In this document: positions 13,628 through 55,505 of the stretch, in pieces
Layout: each line of letters opens with the position of its first letter
Numbering within the stretch: position 1 is the stretch's first letter
Sequence record: OZ335959.1
Strand: one strand, 5' to 3'
DNA length: 64,000 nucleotides
Source: a phage
Position numbers and translations under genes: made by a program
The notes under the pieces: generated by a model
Told to the model about the DNA's origin: nothing
Seen by the model: only the letters and a program-made list of their open reading frames with translations
The model's database searches: none

Positions 13628-13997
13628 ATTTAATGGCTTGAAGAAGACTAATAATTCTCAAGCGACTTCTTTCATCTTTAACCGTAAATGAAAGAGGGTC
13701 ACCAGATTTCATAGTGATAGTGCATTCAAAATCAAAATCTTCGGGAACTTCTTCGAAGAAGTCAAATTCTTCATCATATATTAGAACATTACTCTGAAAA
13801 CTGTGAAGAATTTTTCCATCATTTCCAGATGCTGTACTAATCATTGTAACGTTATTACCTTTCATATCTTCAACGATAAATTCGCTTGTAGATATTACGG
13901 CATTAATAGAACCATTCCTATAAATAGCAGAAAATAGATATTTCTTTTCTTCACCTTCACGAACACGATATTTCTTACCGATTTTAAACATAATCAC
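13620..13997 (-). CDS. Hypothetical protein, 125 aa
   Basis: Track ORF; overlapping start/stop with neighbours. Confidence 0.55.
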   Translation of the reverse strand: MIMFKIGKKYRVREGEEKKYLFSAIYRNGSINAVISTSEFIVEDMKGNNVTMISTASGNDGKILHSFQSNVLIYDEEFDFFEEVPEDFDFECTITMKSGDPLSFTVKDERSRLRIISLLQAIKFE

Positions 13998-20587: not shown

Positions 20588-21190
20588 TTATAGATTAAAT
20601 CCTTCAAAATCAAGAGTATAAATAGTGTATGTTGAATACTTTTTATACTCGTATCTATCCGCAATTCTAAATACACTTCCAGCTGGTATCATTACTTCTT
20701 GTTCATCTGAAACTAATTCCATATTACGATAACGATGGCTATCCGGAAATTTAAAACTTGGACTATATTCTTTACAGCGTAGAGCTTTTATAGCATACTC
20801 CTGGAAATTAAACACCATAGGAGCTTTGAATTCAAAAATAACTTGTGTGTTGTATTCTAATCCAGAAGCAAAATGTAGAGCTATATTTTTATCATATGAA
20901 GCTGATGCTACTTTATCAAATGTAATAATATCAATTCCTTGATTTAACACCTGCTTAGTCTCAACTGGAACACCTCTCCAAAGAGGTTTATCGTTTGGAA
21001 CCAAACGAGATTTGATTATTTCATTTAACCAAGAATGATCGTCTGGCTTATTAGTAATACAATGAATTAAAAGTTCAATTTCGGATAAATTAAATCCTTC
21101 AGAAAGTAATTCTTCACGAATAGAAGCACGCACCGATGCATCCATTGATTTGATTTTAAAATCTTTTAATTGCATTGCTGAATATTTCAT
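20588..21190 (-). CDS. modA: ADP-ribosyltransferase ModA
   Basis: 200-aa ORF; paralogue of the adjacent 207-aa ORF; T4 ModA length and position. Confidence 0.8.
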   Translation of the reverse strand: MKYSAMQLKDFKIKSMDASVRASIREELLSEGFNLSEIELLIHCITNKPDDHSWLNEIIKSRLVPNDKPLWRGVPVETKQVLNQGIDIITFDKVASASYDKNIALHFASGLEYNTQVIFEFKAPMVFNFQEYAIKALRCKEYSPSFKFPDSHRYRNMELVSDEQEVMIPAGSVFRIADRYEYKKYSTYTIYTLDFEGFNL

Positions 21191-24332: not shown

Positions 24333-24851
24333 TTAATAACCTCGGTCTTGACGAGCGAAGTTTTCAGCATTTTTCAGATAATAAAGTTTAAAGATTTCTT
24401 CAGCCGTAAGACCGAGACCTTGGAACATGTTCAGAACGAAATGAAGAATATCAATCATTTCGAATTTAATTTCCAACTGGTCTTGTGGAGATAAGTCAGT
24501 AATCAGAGTTTCACGACGTTCACCGTGTTGCGACTTCCAAGGCTTCCATACAGCAGATGCATCTTTTTCGCCATTGCTCATACCACCAAGAGAAGTCAGA
24601 AGTTCGCGGAATTCATCATCAATATAATCTTTCTGATTACGCAGCCAATCAACAACTTCACCTGCAGTAGCCAAATCATCAGGATGACGGTTATATTCAG
24701 GTTTATCTTTAGCTAAACGAACTTGCAGAGATTTCTGCATATCAAGCATAACCTGCAGCGGGTCTTTTTCATCACCGAGAATATCCCAGTATTCATTTTG
24801 AGCTTTATCAGCGCCTTCAATTAGTTGACTACATTCGTTAAAGTATGCCAT
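24333..24851 (-). CDS. 56: dCTP pyrophosphatase gp56 (MazG-like)
   Basis: Track ORF trimmed to MAYFNECSQLIEGADKAQNEYWDILGDEKDPLQVMLDM... (about 172 aa), matching T4 gp56 as I recall it. Confidence 0.85.
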   Translation of the reverse strand: MAYFNECSQLIEGADKAQNEYWDILGDEKDPLQVMLDMQKSLQVRLAKDKPEYNRHPDDLATAGEVVDWLRNQKDYIDDEFRELLTSLGGMSNGEKDASAVWKPWKSQHGERRETLITDLSPQDQLEIKFEMIDILHFVLNMFQGLGLTAEEIFKLYYLKNAENFARQDRGY

Positions 24852-24922
24852 TATTTTTCCTTTCAATTCATGGGTTAGTAGATTAATTATACAATAAATA
24901 TATAAAGCAATAAGGAGGACAT

Positions 24923-25123
24923 ATGGTACAAAAATTAATGGCACTTGTTAATGCCATAAAAGGTAATAAAAAACGTATAGCTTTTACTATTTCTGCTATG
25001 GTAGGAATTTTACTCTGGAATTTTGTTTTATCACCAATTGCTATTGCTCATGGTGTTAATATTCCGGTAATTACTCTTGATACATTCGTAGATTTAGCAT
25101 TTGCTTTGGTTGGGTTAATTTAA
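24923..25123 (+). CDS. Small predicted membrane protein, 66 aa (plus strand)
   Basis: ATG preceded by AAGGAGG at 4-nt spacing; hydrophobic segments; convergent with gene 61, stops overlap. Confidence 0.5.
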   Translation: MVQKLMALVNAIKGNKKRIAFTISAMVGILLWNFVLSPIAIAHGVNIPVITLDTFVDLAFALVGLI

Positions 25124-26148
25124 ATCTTAGCATATTTAGATAGCCGCATTTTAGCCATCAACCCTTGAGCAATATTATTTTTCATATATTCCATAATTTG
25201 TTCAGGGGTTGCACCTTCCTTTCTAATCATATCATTAACATCTTTTGATTTCCAGGGAGATTTGTCCCAAAACATAACCCTTTCTCCTGCATCAACTAAT
25301 TTAGTCATTCGTTTAATAGTGTCAGGGTGACGAGGTTCATTATCTAAAACCCATACACGTCTATCTTTAAATGGAACAATTTCTAGGTCTAATTGACCAC
25401 CCGTAATAGCTATACCATTTTCAATAAAAAGTGAATCTATAGGTCCTTCTAGAACATATACATCACCATCTTTGACTCGTTCAACTCCATAGATTTTTGT
25501 TGCCTCAGGATAAGCTTTGATGGTGATATATTTTTGGGGAGCATCTTTCTTTAATGCACGTCCTTGAAAAGACTCAGCTTTTCCGTTAGCATTATAAATT
25601 GGAATAACAAGACGAGGCTCGGGCATTTCCTTTTTATATGTTCCTGGCGCTATACTATTAACTAATTTAGGCCATTCGGTTGTAAACCAAAGATATTTCC
25701 ATTTATTCTTTGGAATACAACGAGCTTTTACATATTTTATAATTGGATGGTCTTCCGCCAGTTTATCTAATCTAATGCATGACGGAAGAGATTTAATTAT
25801 TTTCTTCTCAGGTTGTTTAGGAAGTTCTTTAGGTTTTTCTACTGGACGACTTTTACCTTTTTCTTTTCTTATTTCAAAGATATACTCACGATATAAATCA
25901 GGTTCAAACTCCTTTAAATATATTCCAATTGGTGCATGATAGTTACAGTTATAACAATGAATATTTCCTTCATTATTATCGCCATAATACCATCCACGGG
26001 CTTTATTTTGATCGGTTTTTGAATCTCCACAAACAGGACATCTAAACCGTAATTTAAAAGTTGAACTATTATTTACTTGTGCGAATTTAGGTAAATGAGC
26101 TAATGCACGGTATGCAAACTCATTATCAATCCAAGGTATTGATGACAT
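25120..26148 (-). CDS. 61: DNA primase gp61
   Basis: 342-aa ORF with N-terminal zinc ribbon CPVCGDS...CYNC and TOPRIM-like EGPIDSLF; T4 gp61 length. Confidence 0.9.
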   Translation of the reverse strand: MSSIPWIDNEFAYRALAHLPKFAQVNNSSTFKLRFRCPVCGDSKTDQNKARGWYYGDNNEGNIHCYNCNYHAPIGIYLKEFEPDLYREYIFEIRKEKGKSRPVEKPKELPKQPEKKIIKSLPSCIRLDKLAEDHPIIKYVKARCIPKNKWKYLWFTTEWPKLVNSIAPGTYKKEMPEPRLVIPIYNANGKAESFQGRALKKDAPQKYITIKAYPEATKIYGVERVKDGDVYVLEGPIDSLFIENGIAITGGQLDLEIVPFKDRRVWVLDNEPRHPDTIKRMTKLVDAGERVMFWDKSPWKSKDVNDMIRKEGATPEQIMEYMKNNIAQGLMAKMRLSKYAKI

Positions 26149-30827: not shown

Positions 30828-31676
30828 TTAATCAACTGCTATTGGATGAATAGCATTAAACTTATGAAACGCTTCTGATTTTTCTTTGCGCGAAACACAC
30901 ATGCGAAGAACCTTTAATGGCTCGTCTTCTTCACCCAACGATTTTCTCTTTTCAATATTTGATGTTTTCCAACGAGCTTGCTCTGGAAACTCTCTATTGA
31001 TTTGCTCAAGAGCTCTATTATGTTTTGAATTACTACGAATTGAACTACATCCGCCAGGAGCTTGCGCTTTTCCAGATACAACCAGATATTTGAACAAGGC
31101 CAAATGCGGATAACCTTGATTAATTAAATTGAGAAATGCATACATATCTTCGCATAAATCAATTTTTCCATACCCAATTTGTTCTGTTGTAAGTTTTCCA
31201 AGGTCATACCAAGTATTCGTGAATCCATATGAATTTTCACGATAATTACCCCAAGATGAAGTAATTTTAAAAATTGGTAAACGAGCATGACCATGATAAT
31301 ACCCGCAATCCATGGCATCTTCAACGTATTGAATCAATTCATAGAACTGTTCACGGGTTAATTGATTAATTTTATCTACGCAGCGACGATCATCTTTCTT
31401 TCGCATTGAACTCATACGAATAGTAGTATCATCATCAATCATCCAAATTCGTTGACCTGCATACATTTCAGTAATTGCTTTGCGAGTGCCAGCAATTCCA
31501 TTAACATCATCGGGAATAGTTATAATTTTGGCTCTAGACCCGTAAGCGTCATAATAAGCTTTTTCTTCGTGTTCACGTACTACAATATGAGGTTCATAAT
31601 CAGTCGGAAACATATCAAGGGCAGAAACTGCCCCTACGCGTTGATAGCTTGGAATTACGAATTGAATCATTTCCAC
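30828..31676 (-). CDS. Glycosyltransferase, GT-A-like with DxD motif (candidate beta-glucosyl-HMC alpha-glucosyltransferase)
   Basis: 282-aa ORF with RIWMIDDDTT; occupies the uvsX-42 interval where T4 has beta-gt, but is not T4 beta-gt. Confidence 0.6.
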   Translation of the reverse strand: MEMIQFVIPSYQRVGAVSALDMFPTDYEPHIVVREHEEKAYYDAYGSRAKIITIPDDVNGIAGTRKAITEMYAGQRIWMIDDDTTIRMSSMRKKDDRRCVDKINQLTREQFYELIQYVEDAMDCGYYHGHARLPIFKITSSWGNYRENSYGFTNTWYDLGKLTTEQIGYGKIDLCEDMYAFLNLINQGYPHLALFKYLVVSGKAQAPGGCSSIRSNSKHNRALEQINREFPEQARWKTSNIEKRKSLGEEDEPLKVLRMCVSRKEKSEAFHKFNAIHPIAVD

Positions 31677-39058: not shown

Positions 39059-39077
39059 GTAATTTCCTTCAATTCAA

Positions 39078-39102
39078 ATGAGATTTAATTTTATAACTAA
39101 TT
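39078..39102 (-). promoter_or_regulatory. Middle promoter (MotA box TTGCTTTA, 12 bp, TAAAAT) for gene 45
   Basis: MotA-box consensus and sigma70 -10 at the canonical spacing, directly upstream of the gene 45 ATG. Confidence 0.5.
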
Positions 39103-39113
39103 TAATAAAGCAA

Positions 39114-39503
39114 TTAACGATTAAAATCAGAAGCAATTGTTTCCGCAACAATTTGAGCAGCAACAATTAGACGTTCATCTGCATTACCACAATAATCGTC
39201 TTCAAGGCGTTCACCACATGAAGTCATAATAAATTTAGCACCAGCATTTAAAGATTCTGTCGTATGTTTGCGCATTAGTTCAATCCATTTATCACTCACT
39301 TCACGATCGATAGCTTCATAATACGCATGACGAGCAGGTGCAGATTTAATTTTATTCTGAATAACTTCCATCGCGTTATCAGAAAGAGACAAAACCCATG
39401 CTCGACGAATTTTATTTTGGTTTTGTGGATTTGATTCAGAACGCACGTGTTTTGGCTGAATATCTTTTACATCAACAGTATAATTCACAGTAATTTTAGT
39501 CAT
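39114..39503 (-). CDS. rpbA: RNA polymerase-binding protein RpbA
   Basis: 129-aa ORF at T4 rpbA position and length. Confidence 0.75.
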
Positions 39504-39756: not shown

Positions 39757-41439
39757 TTAAACCATTACAGTAAATCGACCAACTTTCTTCATTTGAAGAT
39801 GCTGACCATATTCTTGCGGGTCATGGTCTTTATGCGAAATTATAAAAACATTAGTATTTTTCATTGAATTTATAATATTAGCTACACCTTTAATACCTTC
39901 GGCATCAAATGACCCATCAAACACTTCATCAAGAATTAATGTACTAATACTAACACCAGATACGATAGAAGCAATATCACGCCAAGTAAATAAAAGAGCA
40001 ATATCGATTCGTGCTTTTTCACCTTCACTAAATGAAGCATAACTAAAATCTTCACGACCACGGGATTTAATTGTCTCATTAAATTCTTCATCTAATGTAA
40101 ACACATAATCCGCTTCCATTATTTTAAGATAATGGTTAATCTGCTTATTAAATAATGGAATGTACTTTTTAATAATAGCACCTTTAATACCAGAATCTTT
40201 GAGCATATCAGTCAAAATTCCTCTGTGGTATTTTTCCATTACTAAATTAGTTTTTGTCTTAACAATTTTATCAAGTTCTTCTTGAAGCAGTGCTATTTCA
40301 TCAGCATGGTCAATAAACTCGGATGATGCTTTTTCTATAGCTGCTTTAACTTTTTTAGCTTTATCTACCGTCGTGATTAGAGATTGCTTTTTATTGCGAA
40401 TATCATTTGCCAACGTCTGTTGGGTTTTAATATTATCTCGGTATTCATCAACAAGAACTTTTAAATTATCACGATGTGTTGAAAGCTGTTCAAACGAATG
40501 TGTGCATTCAGAAACTTTATCTTTAATTTTAGAAACAACTTTATCACCTGAACTTAATTGTGACAAACAAGTTGGACATAATCCACCTTCGTGATACATA
40601 TTAATGACTTTATTATACGAGTCAATTTTTGATTTAATTAAAAATGCTTCTTGACCGATTTTATTAAATGCATCAGTCGGGTCTTCATCCAAAACAATAT
40701 TAACTAATCTTTCATTAGCTTCTTCTATTTCCGATTTTAGCGTTCTAGCTTCTTTTGCCAAATCATCATACATATTCTGCAGACGAGTAAGGTTATCACC
40801 AGTTAATTTTTTCTGGCGTTCAACGTTATCATTATATATTTTAATTTGCTGGATAATACTATCTTTTTTAACATCAAGCACTTGGTTTTGTGAATTTAAT
40901 TCACGTATTAGTGCTTTATTAAGCTTATCCATTTCAGCTAGTGTTCCTACCTCGAGCAGGTCTTCGACGAGTTTTCTTCTTGCAGGAGTGGATAGGCCCA
41001 TAAAAGGGGTATATCCAGCCGTGCCGAGTACGACGATCTGTTTGAAACTGGCGTATGACATTCCGATAAGCTGTTCAAATTCTGCTTGGAAATCTTTACT
41101 GCTGGCAGATTCATTAAGACGTGTACCGTTAACGGTGATTTCGAAAACATTCGGTTTTTGTCCTCTTTTGATATAGTACTTTTTCTCATCATATTCCATC
41201 CACAGTTCAACTAAAAGTTCTTTCTTATTTGTGCTGTTTATTAATTGACCTTTCTTTACATCACGAAATGGCTTGCCAAAAAGCCCAAATGTGATGGCTT
41301 CTAACATAGTAGACTTACCACCGCCATTTCGTCCAGTAATAAGAGTTTTTTGAACCTTATCTAGTTGAATGTCAATAGGATTTCCACCTACTGACATTAT
41401 ATTTTGATACCTAACTCGGTTTAGTTTAAAATTCTTCAC
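39757..41439 (-). CDS. 46: Recombination nuclease subunit gp46 (Rad50/SbcC-like ATPase)
   Basis: 560-aa ORF with Walker A GRNGGGKST, coiled-coil middle, CPTC zinc hook and C-terminal Walker B; T4 gp46 length. Confidence 0.92.
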   Translation of the reverse strand: MKNFKLNRVRYQNIMSVGGNPIDIQLDKVQKTLITGRNGGGKSTMLEAITFGLFGKPFRDVKKGQLINSTNKKELLVELWMEYDEKKYYIKRGQKPNVFEITVNGTRLNESASSKDFQAEFEQLIGMSYASFKQIVVLGTAGYTPFMGLSTPARRKLVEDLLEVGTLAEMDKLNKALIRELNSQNQVLDVKKDSIIQQIKIYNDNVERQKKLTGDNLTRLQNMYDDLAKEARTLKSEIEEANERLVNIVLDEDPTDAFNKIGQEAFLIKSKIDSYNKVINMYHEGGLCPTCLSQLSSGDKVVSKIKDKVSECTHSFEQLSTHRDNLKVLVDEYRDNIKTQQTLANDIRNKKQSLITTVDKAKKVKAAIEKASSEFIDHADEIALLQEELDKIVKTKTNLVMEKYHRGILTDMLKDSGIKGAIIKKYIPLFNKQINHYLKIMEADYVFTLDEEFNETIKSRGREDFSYASFSEGEKARIDIALLFTWRDIASIVSGVSISTLILDEVFDGSFDAEGIKGVANIINSMKNTNVFIISHKDHDPQEYGQHLQMKKVGRFTVMV

Positions 41440-48007: not shown

Positions 48008-48290
48008 GAGAAATAATTCCTTGATAAGCCCAATATGGCGGGTTAACAGAATCATCGCCAGAATTTTCTTCAGGAAAATAAACCTGGATAACAAATCCAG
48101 ATTCATCAAAGGTAAAATAAACCGTAGGTAATTCACCTAACAATTCAGCACGATTATTAATTTCTTCGAGTTCTCGTTCACGTCCGGCCCAAAAACTAGG
48201 ATTTAGACTACATTCATAGAAATAATAGTCATTACCGAACATATCAAAACCATTCCAACTCTCTACCACATACCGCTCAAAACTAATCAT
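47979..48290 (-). CDS. Hypothetical protein, 103 aa
   Basis: Track ORF. Confidence 0.5.
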   Translation of the reverse strand: MISFERYVVESWNGFDMFGNDYYFYECSLNPSFWAGRERELEEINNRAELLGELPTVYFTFDESGFVIQVYFPEENSGDDSVNPPYWAYQGIISRGTKLELKE

Positions 48291-48623: not shown

Positions 48624-49094
48624 TTAATCATGTTTCCACACCCCATCGGTATTTGACCAAAGTCGCTGATTATCTGATCCTCGCCACAGCTTTTTGGTCG
48701 GAAGATTTTTCTCATACTTCCCATCAATAATAACATCAACATATTTAAGCATTTCTAGTTGTTTAATATCTTCAAACTTATATCCTGTCCACAACCAAAT
48801 GCTTTTATTTGGATAAAGATTTTTTACTGTTTGAACCACAGAGTGAATAACATCTCGGTTATCAGGATAGAGAGGGTCTCCTCCAGTTATAGTTAATCCT
48901 TCTATATAATCATTATTCAAACATTCAATTAATTGTTCCAGTGTTTCACCAGTGAATGGAACGCCATTTCTAGCATTCCATGTTGATTTATTATAACACC
49001 CTTCGCATTTATGCAAACAACCTGTAACGAAAAGAACGACCCTGCATCCAGGGCCATTCACAAAATCGCAAGGATAAAATCTATCATAATTCAT
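48624..49094 (-). CDS. nrdG: Anaerobic ribonucleotide reductase activating enzyme NrdG (radical SAM)
   Basis: 156-aa ORF with radical-SAM cysteine cluster CLHKCEGCYN; T4 NrdG length. Confidence 0.88.
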   Translation of the reverse strand: MNYDRFYPCDFVNGPGCRVVLFVTGCLHKCEGCYNKSTWNARNGVPFTGETLEQLIECLNNDYIEGLTITGGDPLYPDNRDVIHSVVQTVKNLYPNKSIWLWTGYKFEDIKQLEMLKYVDVIIDGKYEKNLPTKKLWRGSDNQRLWSNTDGVWKHD

Positions 49095-50908
49095 TGGTGT
49101 TTAACCCTATGCATGATTTCTTTATTTTTGCCGAGATTAAATCCGCGTTCATTCGGATTTCCCAAATAACCACATGTTCTTCTTATTGTGTTCATCTTTT
49201 TAGGATCAGTTTCTCCACAAATAGAGCAAACAAATCCGTTTTCAGTAGGAGTCATTTCATGGGTACTTCCACACGTAAAACATTTATCTACTGGCATGTT
49301 AACACCAAAATAATCTAAATGTTGTGCAGCATAATCCCATACAGCCTCAAGACCTTTTAAGTTATTTTTCATATCAGGAAGTTCAACATAAGAAATGTGA
49401 CCACCTGTCGCAATGAAATGATATGGTGCTTCTCGAGAAATCTTTTCAAACGGAGTAATATTTTCTTCTACTGAAACGTGGAAACTATTAGTGTACCATC
49501 CTTTATCAGTAACATCTTTTACACTTCCATATTTTTCGGTATCAAGTTTACAGAAGCGATAGCACAGGTTTTCAGCAGGAGTAGAATACAAACTAAAAGC
49601 AAAACCGGTTCTTTCAGTCCACTGCTTAAGATGAGTATTCATTTTAGTTAAAATTTCTTGTCCAATATCACGACCGACAAGAATATTCAATTCGTGAATA
49701 CCAATGTATCCTAGGGACACTGAACTTCTACCGTTTTTAAATAACTCAATTATGTCGTCATCAGGTTTAAGACGAACCCCGAATGCACCTTCTTGGTAAA
49801 GAATAGGAGCAACAGTCGCTTTAACTCCTTTTAAGGAACTAATTCTACACATCAATGCTTCAAAACACAAATCCATTCGTTCATTGAACAATTCGGCAAA
49901 TTTCTGTTCATTGAATTGTGTTCCAATATAAGAATCTAACGCAATGCGAGGAAGATTCAGTGTTACAACGCCAAGATTATTACGTCCATCAAGAATTTCA
50001 TTACCAGTCGAATCTTTCCATACGCTTAAGAAACTACGGCAACCCATCGGAGAAACAGGAATAGATGAACCGGTGATAGCTTTATTGTTCTTAGCTGAAA
50101 TAATATCAGGATACATTCTTTTACTTGCGCACTCTAAAGCAAGCTGCTTAATATCATAGTTCGGGTCATCTTTATAAAGATTAACACCTTCTTCAACGAA
50201 CATAACAAGTTTAGGGAAAATAGGAGTTATCCCATCGCGACCAAGACCTTTAATACGATTTTTCAGAATTGCTTTCTGAATCATTCGTTCAGTCCAGTCA
50301 GTTCCCGTACCAAATGTAATTGTTACAAAAGGCGTTTGTCCATTTGAACTAAAGAGAGTATTTACTTCATATTCATAAGCTTGGAATGCATCGTATACGT
50401 CTTTTTCTGTTTTAGATTGGGCGTAATTCAACGCATCAGCGATTTGCCATTTTTCTGCATCCTCAATGTGTTTTGCATAGGTGCGTTTAACATAAGGAGA
50501 AAGTACTTTATCTACATTCGCAAAAGTCGTTCCGCCATATTGATGAGAAGCAACCTGTGCAGTAATTTGTGCCATAATTGCAGTAGCAACGCCGATTGAT
50601 TTAGGAGTTTCAATCTGCGCATTACCGAGCTTAAATCCATTCTCAAGCATTCCTTTTAAATCTACTAAACAGCAATTAGTAAATGGAAGAGCAGGCGAAT
50701 AATCAATATCATGGAAATGAATAATTCCGCTTTCATGCGCTTTCATAATAAAAGACGGGACCATATTTTTGGCAATGTGTTTAGACACAATACCAGCCAT
50801 AAGGTCCCGTTGAGTTGGAAAAACACGAGAATCTTTATTAGCATTCTCGTTTAAAAGGTCTTTATTAGTTTTATGAATCAATCCTTCAATTTCTTTTTCA
50901 ATTGTCAT
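49091..50908 (-). CDS. nrdD: Anaerobic ribonucleoside-triphosphate reductase NrdD
   Basis: 605-aa continuous ORF; C-terminal zinc site CFTCGSTHE...CSICG and glycyl-radical motif RRTCGYLG. Confidence 0.93.
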   Translation of the reverse strand: MTIEKEIEGLIHKTNKDLLNENANKDSRVFPTQRDLMAGIVSKHIAKNMVPSFIMKAHESGIIHFHDIDYSPALPFTNCCLVDLKGMLENGFKLGNAQIETPKSIGVATAIMAQITAQVASHQYGGTTFANVDKVLSPYVKRTYAKHIEDAEKWQIADALNYAQSKTEKDVYDAFQAYEYEVNTLFSSNGQTPFVTITFGTGTDWTERMIQKAILKNRIKGLGRDGITPIFPKLVMFVEEGVNLYKDDPNYDIKQLALECASKRMYPDIISAKNNKAITGSSIPVSPMGCRSFLSVWKDSTGNEILDGRNNLGVVTLNLPRIALDSYIGTQFNEQKFAELFNERMDLCFEALMCRISSLKGVKATVAPILYQEGAFGVRLKPDDDIIELFKNGRSSVSLGYIGIHELNILVGRDIGQEILTKMNTHLKQWTERTGFAFSLYSTPAENLCYRFCKLDTEKYGSVKDVTDKGWYTNSFHVSVEENITPFEKISREAPYHFIATGGHISYVELPDMKNNLKGLEAVWDYAAQHLDYFGVNMPVDKCFTCGSTHEMTPTENGFVCSICGETDPKKMNTIRRTCGYLGNPNERGFNLGKNKEIMHRVKHQ

Positions 50909-53525: not shown

Positions 53526-54451
53526 TTCAATACCTCAATAGCATTACGTAAACCATTTGCTTTTGCATTAAGAGCTTTTAACAATTTGGTGTGTTCGGCA
53601 ATCTGGGCTTCAACTTCAATTAAACGAGCATTGAGATATTCACGTTCTTCGCTCAGGTTATCAACCTTTTCTACTTTAGGTTCTTTTACAACTATCTTAT
53701 ATGTATTAGGGTTCTTCAGTTTAATTAGAATGCGTGAACTGTATAACATTGAACCATTATCTTCGGTTTCGTCATACATTTCTACTACGTCCATGATTTT
53801 TAACATCATGCGGAGTTTATAAGACAACGAACGAATAGTTTTGTTGTGCTTATTAATTTCTCTAGAGTTCATGGTGCCAAGATTACGTGAGTAATAATAA
53901 GGAACCTGAATATTAATTAATACTGATGAACCACCTGGCTTATGTGTTACTTCATCAGCAATAACCCAGTCCTTAACATGAACTGTATTTGTACGGTCAT
54001 CGCCTGTGGTAAATAGTTTACGAGCATGCTTAAAAAGCATATTCACTTGGTCATTGAATTGACAAGCGAATTTATCAGCAAATTTAGTTTCAGGAATGGT
54101 AGATAACCAATCAGCCAAATGGGTCTTTTTAACATCGTTAACAATAGTAAATTCAACCAAATCGGTTATAGATGTTGCAGATTTAATGAAGCTCGGCTTC
54201 ATAAAGTTTTTAATGTTATCGCGAGCTACAGTAGAAGATAACATACGAGAACGTTTAAACCATTCAAGCAAATTGCCCAATGAATGAGAATAGGCGTTCT
54301 GAGTATCTTTACAGATATGATTTTCCTGGCCAGCATATTGAAGGAAATCACGAAGAATATTATTGATTACTGCTCTGTGTCCGATCTGATAATTACGGTG
54401 TTTAGTAATAAGACTGTCAAAATAATCAATATAATGTTTACGAGTTTTCAT
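53522..54451 (-). CDS. Hypothetical protein with C-terminal coiled coil, 309 aa
   Basis: Track ORF; last ~45 aa [42 protein letters not shown] heptad-like. Confidence 0.6.
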   Translation of the reverse strand: MKTRKHYIDYFDSLITKHRNYQIGHRAVINNILRDFLQYAGQENHICKDTQNAYSHSLGNLLEWFKRSRMLSSTVARDNIKNFMKPSFIKSATSITDLVEFTIVNDVKKTHLADWLSTIPETKFADKFACQFNDQVNMLFKHARKLFTTGDDRTNTVHVKDWVIADEVTHKPGGSSVLINIQVPYYYSRNLGTMNSREINKHNKTIRSLSYKLRMMLKIMDVVEMYDETEDNGSMLYSSRILIKLKNPNTYKIVVKEPKVEKVDNLSEEREYLNARLIEVEAQIAEHTKLLKALNAKANGLRNAIEVLK

Positions 54452-54503
54452 GTTCTTCTCACTTGATTAATGATTTATACTCCGAGCCATCCTTGGCTTT
54501 AAA

Positions 54504-55505
54504 TTACTTAATTAACTGTAAAGCTTGTTCAAGACGATCCAGACGATTAACAGATTCTTCCCAAATCCTTTTAGCCTGCTCATATTCTTTCTGCGCTTTA
54601 TTAGAAATTTCTAGAGCTTCTTTATAAGCTTTTTCTAGTGCAATAACTTCTGGACGAATTTCTACCGGTTCAGGTGAATCATCAAGACATTCCATTAGTT
54701 CCTCAAGGGTAGTTTCTTCTTTAGGAGTATTCGCAATTTCATCACATTTTTGTTGGTAAATTTCTTTATCAGTCGGCGAGTACGCACATTTCACTTCACG
54801 AAGACTAACTACAATTTTGTATCCTTCCCAACCGCATATATTCTTAAAAGGATAAGTATGAATATTTTCTACTGTTTCCATACAAAGTAGTGCAGTCTCT
54901 AATTGACGAGTTATATCGCTAGCAATTGAGAAAAATTTATTGATGTTCTTTTGATTAGCTTCTGGTGTAAAAAATTCATAATTCACAAAAATAGCTGCTT
55001 TATTTTTATCAAGTTCATATTCTTTTATGATAATCATATCAGAAGCCCAAGGATGAATTTGACGATAATCGCCATAGCATAATTTAGAAGCGGATTTTAT
55101 AATTTGCTTCTTGAAAAGTCTGAAATTACTAACCCAACGACGAGTAAAAATATTCTCAGGGTCTTCTTTATTATTAAGATGATAAGAATTAACATCACCG
55201 AACCAATTATATCCTACTACATTTTTAGTTCGTTTAATTTCTTTCCCAAATTTACCAAGAATATCTTGATTAACTAAATATGAAAGAAGACGAGACCTTT
55301 TAAAGGTTTCCTTAATATCATCTTTATATTCGCGACTAGAAATTTTATGAACTTCATGAATAAATTTGCTCGAAGAAACAATGCTTACATCAATATTATT
55401 GAGCCATTGATTGATAATGGAAATAACGCTATTCTGACTAGACATAGGTTTAACTTTATCATCAATAACGCTATTGAATGATTTGATATATTCGTTACGA
55501 GTCAT
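54504..55505 (-). CDS. Hypothetical protein with C-terminal coiled coil (about 333 aa after trimming)
   Basis: Track ORF 54504-55556 includes the promoter; ATG at 55503-55505 with GAGGAG SD; C-terminus ALEKAYKEALEISNKAQKEYEQAKRIWEESVNRLDRLEQALQLIK. Confidence 0.6.
   Translation of the reverse strand: MTRNEYIKSFNSVIDDKVKPMSSQNSVISIINQWLNNIDVSIVSSSKFIHEVHKISSREYKDDIKETFKRSRLLSYLVNQDILGKFGKEIKRTKNVVGYNWFGDVNSYHLNNKEDPENIFTRRWVSNFRLFKKQIIKSASKLCYGDYRQIHPWASDMIIIKEYELDKNKAAIFVNYEFFTPEANQKNINKFFSIASDITRQLETALLCMETVENIHTYPFKNICGWEGYKIVVSLREVKCAYSPTDKEIYQQKCDEIANTPKEETTLEELMECLDDSPEPVEIRPEVIALEKAYKEALEISNKAQKEYEQAKRIWEESVNRLDRLEQALQLIK

Follow-up and report, generated by a model that had tools for sequence, protein, structure and literature searches.

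A conserved clockwise gene between genes 56 and 61 of T4-like phages is predicted to encode a late inner-membrane protein

The short interval between genes 56 and 61 of a T4-like coliphage (sequence record OZ335959.1) holds, on the evidence of codon-level comparison, a genuine protein-coding gene under purifying selection, whose position is constant although the DNA towards gene 56 is exchanged. The gene is not new, being a member of the already catalogued dam.1/RB32ORF030w family, and its 66-aa product is a predicted inner-membrane protein. We think it likely that the gene is expressed late, in dependence on gp55, and that its product is a small protein of the inner membrane acting at the cell envelope. 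From the conservation of a late-promoter-like box and from the features of the protein we infer late timing and membrane insertion strongly; a role in the envelope or the lysis phase is a guess, and a rather doubtful one, drawn from timing and location rather than from homology.

Results

The 56–61 interval and its sequence context

The window, by which we mean the whole stretch of 64,000 nucleotides that was analysed, is T4-like coliphage sequence and its closest public record is that of Escherichia phage EC121 (Tequatrovirus). Identity to EC121 is 99.4% across the 1.4 kb surrounding the open reading frame (ORF) described here and 92–97% across the entire window, which is collinear with EC121 from gene t via rIIB and rIIA to ~57 kb. 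The alignment breaks at window positions 31672, 39068-39134, 41423-41430, 49094-49155 and 54445-55486. Skipped at these breaks are stretches of EC121 that hold a hypothetical gene of 213 aa (gp041), gp051 and two annotated homing endonucleases, gp055 and gp076, and the window carries ~1 kb of additional DNA relative to EC121 at 54445-55486.

The left flank of the interval is gene 56 (dCTPase/dUTPase; 24333..24851, minus strand), which matches PHROG 173 (E 1.5e-46) and whose product is 100% identical to RB51 gp56. Its true ATG is at 24851, and a 203-aa GTG-extended gene 56 frame (24333..24944) is an artefact of ORF listing. The right flank is gene 61 (DNA primase; 25120..26148, minus strand), which matches PHROG 47 (E 5e-107) with 98–99% identity to T4 and RB51 gp61. 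Between the 5′ side of gene 56, ending at 24851, and the end of gene 61 at 25120 lie 268 bp, close to the figure of about 270 bp given by a sequence-only reading of the same DNA.

That reading had also described a plus-strand ORF of 66 aa here, and every sequence detail of its description holds. The ORF, at 24923..25123 and with an ATG start codon, is the sole plus-strand ATG ORF in the gap; a Shine-Dalgarno sequence, AAGGAGG, stands 4 nt ahead of the ATG at 24912..24918 (plus strand), and a GGAGG-type site is found in all homologous loci inspected. The ORF is convergent with gene 61, as had been proposed, and the two stop codons overlap at 25120-25123, the TAA of the ORF (25121-25123) and the stop of gene 61 (25120-25122) sharing a TTAA. 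The EC121 annotation bears out the further claim that this is the lone opposite-strand gene of a leftward block, for its ORF is the sole plus-strand CDS between position 1 and 75,339.

The two flanks differ in their similarity to T4: gp56 of the window is 73% identical to that of T4 (24333-24851 against L003 2774-3286), gp61 adjoining it 98% and the ORF 94%. Two gp56 alleles can be distinguished, one in T4, L009 and L011 and the other in the window, RB51 and L012; this split would fit the marker exclusion around segF that is known from crosses of T4 with T2.

Coding status and selection

Codon-aligned comparison gives dN/dS of 0.06–0.29 over all Tequatrovirus pairs, the window copy being separated from the other Tequatrovirus copies by 5–9 synonymous and 1–4 non-synonymous changes. 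Against the copies in Mosigvirus and Gaprivervirus, dS is saturated and dN is ~0.43, with the frame open for 65–66 codons. Over more than 10 lineages with saturated synonymous divergence the frame is open at 61–74 codons. Within its bounds no ORF of at least 25 aa is read from the minus strand, and only the GTG extension of gene 56 overlaps its first 22 nt. The sequence-only reading had named lack of conservation as something that would count against it; the ORF is conserved, and under purifying selection.

Family identity and phylogenetic spread

The ORF product matches the profile of PHROG 2024, a family of unknown function, along almost its whole length (E 5.4e-31, residues 2–66 on positions 1–65 of 65). 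The gene has been named RB32ORF030w ('similar to RB69ORF029w') in RB51 and RB14 and dam.1 in T4T (T4Tp032) and T6; most of the remaining records call its product a hypothetical protein. NC_000866 and AF158101, the reference records of T4, leave the stretch between dam and gene 61 unannotated and omit the ORF. Tequatrovirus dam.1 copies share 94–100% identity with the window ORF, together with strand, stop overlap, Shine-Dalgarno sequence and an upstream ATAAATA; from dam.1 of T4 and T2 the window ORF differs only in its left neighbour, which is gene 56 here and dam there.

Searching with the ORF protein (tblastn) returned matches in 693 phage records. The ORF adjoins gene 61 in Tequatrovirus, Mosigvirus, Gaprivervirus, Dhakavirus, Marfavirus, Gelderlandvirus, Moonvirus and Kanagawavirus, and two uncultured lineages from Logan assemblies have the same layout; the members from all of these match PHROG 2024. 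As judged from these genomes, at least nine T4-like genera have a family member arranged tail-to-tail with primase. All of the loci examined, at least 15, have the ORF on the plus strand, overlapping or abutting gene 61 at its 3′ end, and differ in the genes that lie towards gene 56. We considered gene 56 as the anchor of the ORF and rejected it, other genes intervening in Marfa, Moon and PEi20, where the ORF stays with gene 61. At the 56–61 site the ORF was not found in CC31 (Karamvirus) or in RB43 and GAP161 (Pseudotevenvirus).

Profile searches returned nothing outside the T4-like phages. A profile of type A, the branch to which the window ORF belongs, found six cluster representatives among 1.84 billion searched, all of the same family, and a profile from a wider alignment found 119 matches among 5.8 billion proteins. 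All 119 are hypothetical proteins on T4-like contigs, many of them 160–175 kb long, and none has a Pfam domain; stray automatic names among them are 'Holin', 'DNA packaging ATPase' and 'dCTP pyrophosphatase'.

A divergent branch, type B, is represented by the second tandem copy in Gaprivervirus VR25 (VR25_032), by an unannotated 66-aa ORF in the 56–61 gap of JS98 (Dhakavirus), and by members in Klebsiella phage Marfa, Salmonella phage CGG4-1, Citrobacter phage Moon and Edwardsiella phage PEi20; further Enterobacter, Pectobacterium and Kosakonia phages give matches to type B by tblastn only. The type B members inspected match PHROG 2024 at E 1e-15 to 1e-28, and the window ORF and the JS98 member match directly (BLASTP E 6e-7).

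Several loci show how the gene varies in copy number and start codon. VR25 (L006 2201-2401) carries a type A followed by a type B copy in tandem, the second of which overlaps gene 61; in TH40 (L007 ~2200-2310) this second member is disrupted by an internal deletion and a frameshift. The T6 record (L029, MH550421, 2232-2234) has ATT for ATG behind an intact AAGGAGG, and because of this substitution the depositors annotated a 61-aa product from Met6. Since the gene is absent in some genera, begins with ATT in the T6 record and has decayed as a duplicate in TH40, it is dispensable in some backgrounds and probably non-essential. Members of the family are also unannotated in JS98 (L030 4344-4544) and PEi20 (L034 1274-1459), as in the T4 reference; the gene has been missed repeatedly by annotators.

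Relationship to dam and gene 69

The sequence-only reading had expected dam and gene 69 between genes 56 and 61, as the T4 arrangement, and took the ORF to be present instead of them. For T4 this is right for dam and mistaken for gene 69, which in the 1984 record X01416 (1548-2726; Macdonald and Mosig) corresponds to today's gene 56 plus segF, with 69* being segF. This frame, which spans oriA downstream of P(M) 16.53, is found to the soc side of the promoter of gene 56 and outside the 56–61 gap. The window lacks segF, as soc and gene 56 are separated by only 72 nt.

The absence of dam from the window, in turn, was upheld. A tblastn search with T4 Dam found no homologue in the window (best E 0.65) and none in the complete EC121 genome, which served as proxy for the source genome (best E 1.5, against 2e-176 for the T4 control); no methyltransferase is found among the EC121 annotations. 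Motifs of the form [DNS]PP[YFWH] in the window are confined to ORFs of 103 and 107 aa. An NPPY at 48044 was rejected as a methyltransferase signature, the 107-aa ORF that contains it being too small and having no similarity to Dam. By these searches dam is missing from the window and from the closest complete genome, and beyond the 64 kb the statement rests on proxies.

The ORF is nevertheless no replacement for dam, a view ruled out by T4 and T2, which carry dam and the ORF side by side. In T4 the ORF lies within the 309-bp stretch between dam and gene 61 (L003 4239..4439), with 94% identity to the window copy, and in T2 the order is 56 – dam – T2_31 – ORF – 61. T6, RB51 and EC121, by contrast, have the order 56 – ORF – 61, identical to that of the window, and in Killian an HNH endonuclease separates gene 56 from the ORF. 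Across the loci compared, the neighbour of the ORF on the gene 56 side is nothing at all, dam, an HNH endonuclease, dam plus a gene of 181–186 aa, or a small MazG-like gene. The window has the dam-less 'T6/RB51' allele, and the comparison of gene orders indicates that dam is one optional insert among several to the left of a constant ORF.

Nor does the dam-less layout depart from expectation, as had been supposed. T4-type Dam (at least 90% identity) is found in ~182 phage records and the ORF (at least 80% identity) in ~503, from which it follows that the dam-less state is the commoner one. The absence of dam is a common and known polymorphism and no anomaly, and we would expect the ORF product to have no connection with Dam methylation.

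The gene of 181–186 aa directly upstream of dam (L012 1841-2401, minus strand; 'T2_31' in T2, MH751506 15998-16543) is of some interest in its own right. In L012 the two genes overlap at start and stop. It has a match to the Pfam family of DpnII (GATC) restriction endonucleases that falls below threshold (E 0.0045; 16.8 bits, cutoff 23), and it carries a D...EIK motif; it may be a dam-linked endonuclease-like gene of some T-even phages.

A conserved late-promoter-like box

ATAAATA, the core of the T4 late promoter TATAAATA, occurs seven times in the window, counting both strands, where 38.5 ± 6 copies are expected, a five-fold depletion. One of the seven belongs to a late-promoter-like box, AATAAATA, at 24893..24900 on the plus strand, which ends 22 nt before the ATG of the ORF and has the character of T4 late promoters, in which an TATAAATA-type box stands about one helical turn upstream of the start site and there is no −35 element. 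Of 50 T4 late sites, 32 are perfect and nine have A at −13, the commonest variant (Geiduschek and Kassavetis, PMC2988020). All T4 early and middle transcripts run counterclockwise (PMC2988020), and a clockwise gene, such as the ORF, could therefore only be late.

Of 15 lineages or arrangements, 12 have the heptamer 15–22 nt ahead of the ATG, although their flanks are unrelated. It occurs as GATAAATA in T4, T2 and L012, where it adjoins dam or T2_31; as AATAAATA in Killian, T6, Mosigvirus and JS98; as CATAAATA in Gaprivervirus and PEi20; and within a perfect TATAAATA in Marfa. The L020 lineage likewise has the heptamer ahead of the ORF, and the remaining three lineages have near-matches only, TATTAAATA in CGG4-1 and Moon and TATTAATA in L018. 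Together these loci make a strong comparative case for a predicted late promoter upstream of the ORF.

The other copies of ATAAATA with a reading frame 20–30 nt downstream precede soc (TATAAATA, 30 nt before the gene) and gene 49 (AATAAATA, also 30 nt before). These two are T4 late-promoter genes within the early region, and their boxes lie 30 nt from the ATG against 22 nt for the ORF; both are on the counterclockwise strand like their neighbours, whereas the ORF is clockwise and convergent with gene 61. Two perfect TATAAATA octamers also occur on the plus strand at 13919-13926 and 20617-20624, inside minus-strand early genes. Neither is followed by an ORF of 36 aa or more; as ATAAATA is depleted five-fold in the window, the two may be late promoters that read antisense. 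We also considered a sigma-70-like plus-strand promoter at 24825-24854 and rejected it: neither of its hexamers is kept in T4, where early and middle transcription is counterclockwise.

A predicted MotA-type middle promoter of gene 56 occupies 24886..24910 on the minus strand, with a mot box, TTGCTTTA, at 24910-24903, an 11-nt spacer and a −10 element, TATAAT, at 24891-24886; its T4 counterpart is annotated 'mot-box of promoter P(M) 16.53' in X01416. The late box of the window lies in the spacer of this middle promoter, on the opposite strand. In T4 and T2 dam intervenes, so that the late box and the gene 56 promoter do not overlap.

Downstream of the ORF no plus-strand terminator-like site was found for more than 4 kb, and a late transcript would consequently run antisense into gene 61. 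On the minus strand, a terminator scan picked out a hairpin with a U-tract, TAATTTTTGT, at 24938..24957, inside codons 6–12 of the ORF and 165 nt downstream of the gene 61 stop, as a weak candidate for the terminator of the gene 61 unit. Its fold energy is −8.9 kcal/mol (z −2.0). T4 has the identical hairpin, and Mosigvirus and Gaprivervirus lack it; Yersinia phage fPS-2 has a 'terminator' feature annotated under its match to the ORF. We regard this putative terminator as a weak, Tequatrovirus-specific side feature.

Features of the predicted protein

The ORF product was taken by the sequence-only reading to be hydrophobic and membrane-like, and its composition agrees, as does a modelled transmembrane helix. 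With a GRAVY of 1.25, the product has five basic and no acidic residues ahead of its hydrophobic core, and the best 19-residue Kyte-Doolittle window (2.0) covers residues 23–41; by the positive-inside rule the N-terminus would be cytoplasmic. The stretch from residue 43 to 66, which ends in LVGLI, has two acidic residues and no basic one. An AlphaFold model from 36 diverse sequences (mean pLDDT 82.5) places helices at residues 2–12, 16–42 (27 residues) and 52–63 (12 residues), with an extended conserved linker at 43–51, and a run with a shallower alignment gave the same layout; such models of tiny membrane proteins are weak evidence.

The window protein has the W-N-x4-P core after a basic N-terminal segment that characterizes the family. 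W32, N33 and P38 are invariant in 36 diverse members and A40, P48 and G64 are conserved in at least 90%, while G44 is invariant solely in an alignment of 11 sequences. Placed on the model, the constrained part of the protein is the periplasm-proximal half of the transmembrane helix and the turn that follows it.

Scans of the protein against Pfam and NCBIfam returned no family even at E 10. Foldseek returned nothing from the PDB, and from BFVD the sole significant match (E ≤ 0.001) was a member of the protein's own family; BFVD also returned a 27%-identical match in Enterobacter phage CIP9. We found no mention of the gene in the literature on T4 ribosome profiling, transcription-start mapping, CRISPRi-ART or HIDEN-SEQ.

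Discussion

A late gene for a small inner-membrane protein

In the reading that we favour, gp55-RNA polymerase would transcribe the gene from the AATAAATA box 22 nt before the ATG, at late times only, and the strong Shine-Dalgarno site would serve its translation. The product would insert with its basic N-terminus (+5 charge) on the cytoplasmic side and span the inner membrane with a single helix of 27 residues, so placed that the invariant W-N...P...G...P stretch is at the periplasmic end and the short acidic C-terminal helix is at or within the outer leaflet. An asparagine in the bilayer is a classic association motif. Speculatively, the product could act stoichiometrically late in infection, using the invariant membrane-embedded Asn for helix-helix contact with a partner in the membrane. 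The likeliest role would be to modulate envelope or lysis-phase events, as a non-essential fitness gene. As a side consequence, the late transcript would run antisense into gene 61 and, in the allele of the window, its promoter would overlap the middle promoter of gene 56.

Among the alternatives the one that fares best, improbable as we consider it, is a protein of envelope-level exclusion or counter-defence, of the kind of Imm, Sp and rII and unrelated to them, which would shield infected cells against superinfection or against a host defence that acts on the membrane. A small membrane protein confined to T4-like phages of Enterobacterales would suit such a role, as would its fast evolution (54% identity against 74% for gp61), which recalls arms-race genes, and its loss or duplication in some lineages. 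The T4 exclusion functions, however, are early genes, and the ORF has a late-type promoter on a strand that is not read early. T4 Imm, Sp, RI and Ac resemble the ORF product as small phage-encoded membrane or periplasmic proteins, and are likewise non-essential on laboratory hosts. They have no homology to it, and they are counterclockwise genes with early or middle promoters, whereas the ORF has a late-type promoter only.

Somewhat less probable still is a holin or pinholin-like lysis protein. Holins such as T4 T, those of classes II and III and pinholin S21 are small, late-expressed inner-membrane proteins, and the ORF has the size, the predicted transmembrane helix and the late-type promoter of one; UniProt indeed names the member in phage OE5505 'Holin'. 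That label, however, is an unreviewed automatic name, and the ORF product shares no sequence or profile similarity with holins, no Pfam holin family being found even at E 10. Its C-terminus is hydrophobic and acidic with no basic residue past residue 42, and it lacks the hydrophilic, highly charged C-terminal domain of holins. The gene also stands outside any lysis cassette: it adjoins neither the endolysin nor any other lysis gene, its neighbours being those for dCTPase and primase, and holin T (EC121 159651-160307), lysozyme e and spanins are already present elsewhere.

We accord the same low probability to the proposal that the element matters mainly as DNA or RNA, an antisense late promoter that shuts down gene 61 and gene 56 (oriA-type) late in infection, with the peptide secondary. 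The position of the promoter box inside the gene 56 middle-promoter spacer, the overlapping stops, the lack of a plus-strand terminator for more than 4 kb and the minus-strand terminator-like hairpin inside the ORF would all fit. Yet the protein is under purifying selection, with W32, N33 and P38 invariant over deep divergence, and all loci inspected retain its strong Shine-Dalgarno site; T4 and T2, on the other hand, lack the overlap with the promoter of gene 56, and the hairpin is not conserved outside Tequatrovirus. Type I toxin-like peptides (Hok, TisB) offer a related comparison, as short hydrophobic ORFs covered by opposite-strand transcription, which here would be gene 61 read-through. 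The ORF is longer than these and has a conserved periplasm-proximal motif, and the likeness is a resemblance only, with no sign of toxicity or of a dedicated antisense RNA.

Finally, that a frame so short and AT-rich, and unannotated in the T4 reference records, is a chance ORF in a regulatory spacer and no gene has a negligible probability and is already refuted by the comparative data, namely 61–74 open codons across more than 10 lineages with saturated synonymous sites, dN/dS far under 1, a conserved Shine-Dalgarno sequence and start, and no minus-strand ORF of at least 25 aa within it.

Implications for T4-like phages

As a discovery the gene is minor, since it is annotated in hundreds of phage genomes. 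The T4 reference, however, omits a conserved, selected and probably late-expressed gene, and omics or knock-down screens built on the NC_000866/AF158101 annotation would therefore be blind to it. The interval between gene 56 and the ORF is an insertion hot spot, receiving dam, an HNH endonuclease and the dam-adjoining gene with a faint DpnII-like match, and it stops exactly at the ORF promoter, which should aid the reading of this region in new T4-like genomes.

The residual interest is that of a widely conserved 'dark' gene, predicted to be late and to encode a membrane protein. It is the only clockwise gene in a counterclockwise block of ~75 kb, and among the few T4-like genes that are conserved in position across many genera without a functional clue, so that a knockout study would be cheap and its target well defined. 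There is a slim chance that the dam.1 family is an overlooked gp55-dependent inner-membrane component of the late phase, belonging to a classical membrane process that is incompletely assigned, and with a promoter that also drives antisense transcription into the primase gene. The processes in which it might then take part include lysis timing or inhibition, the membrane-bound initiation of proheads and protection from membrane-acting host defence.
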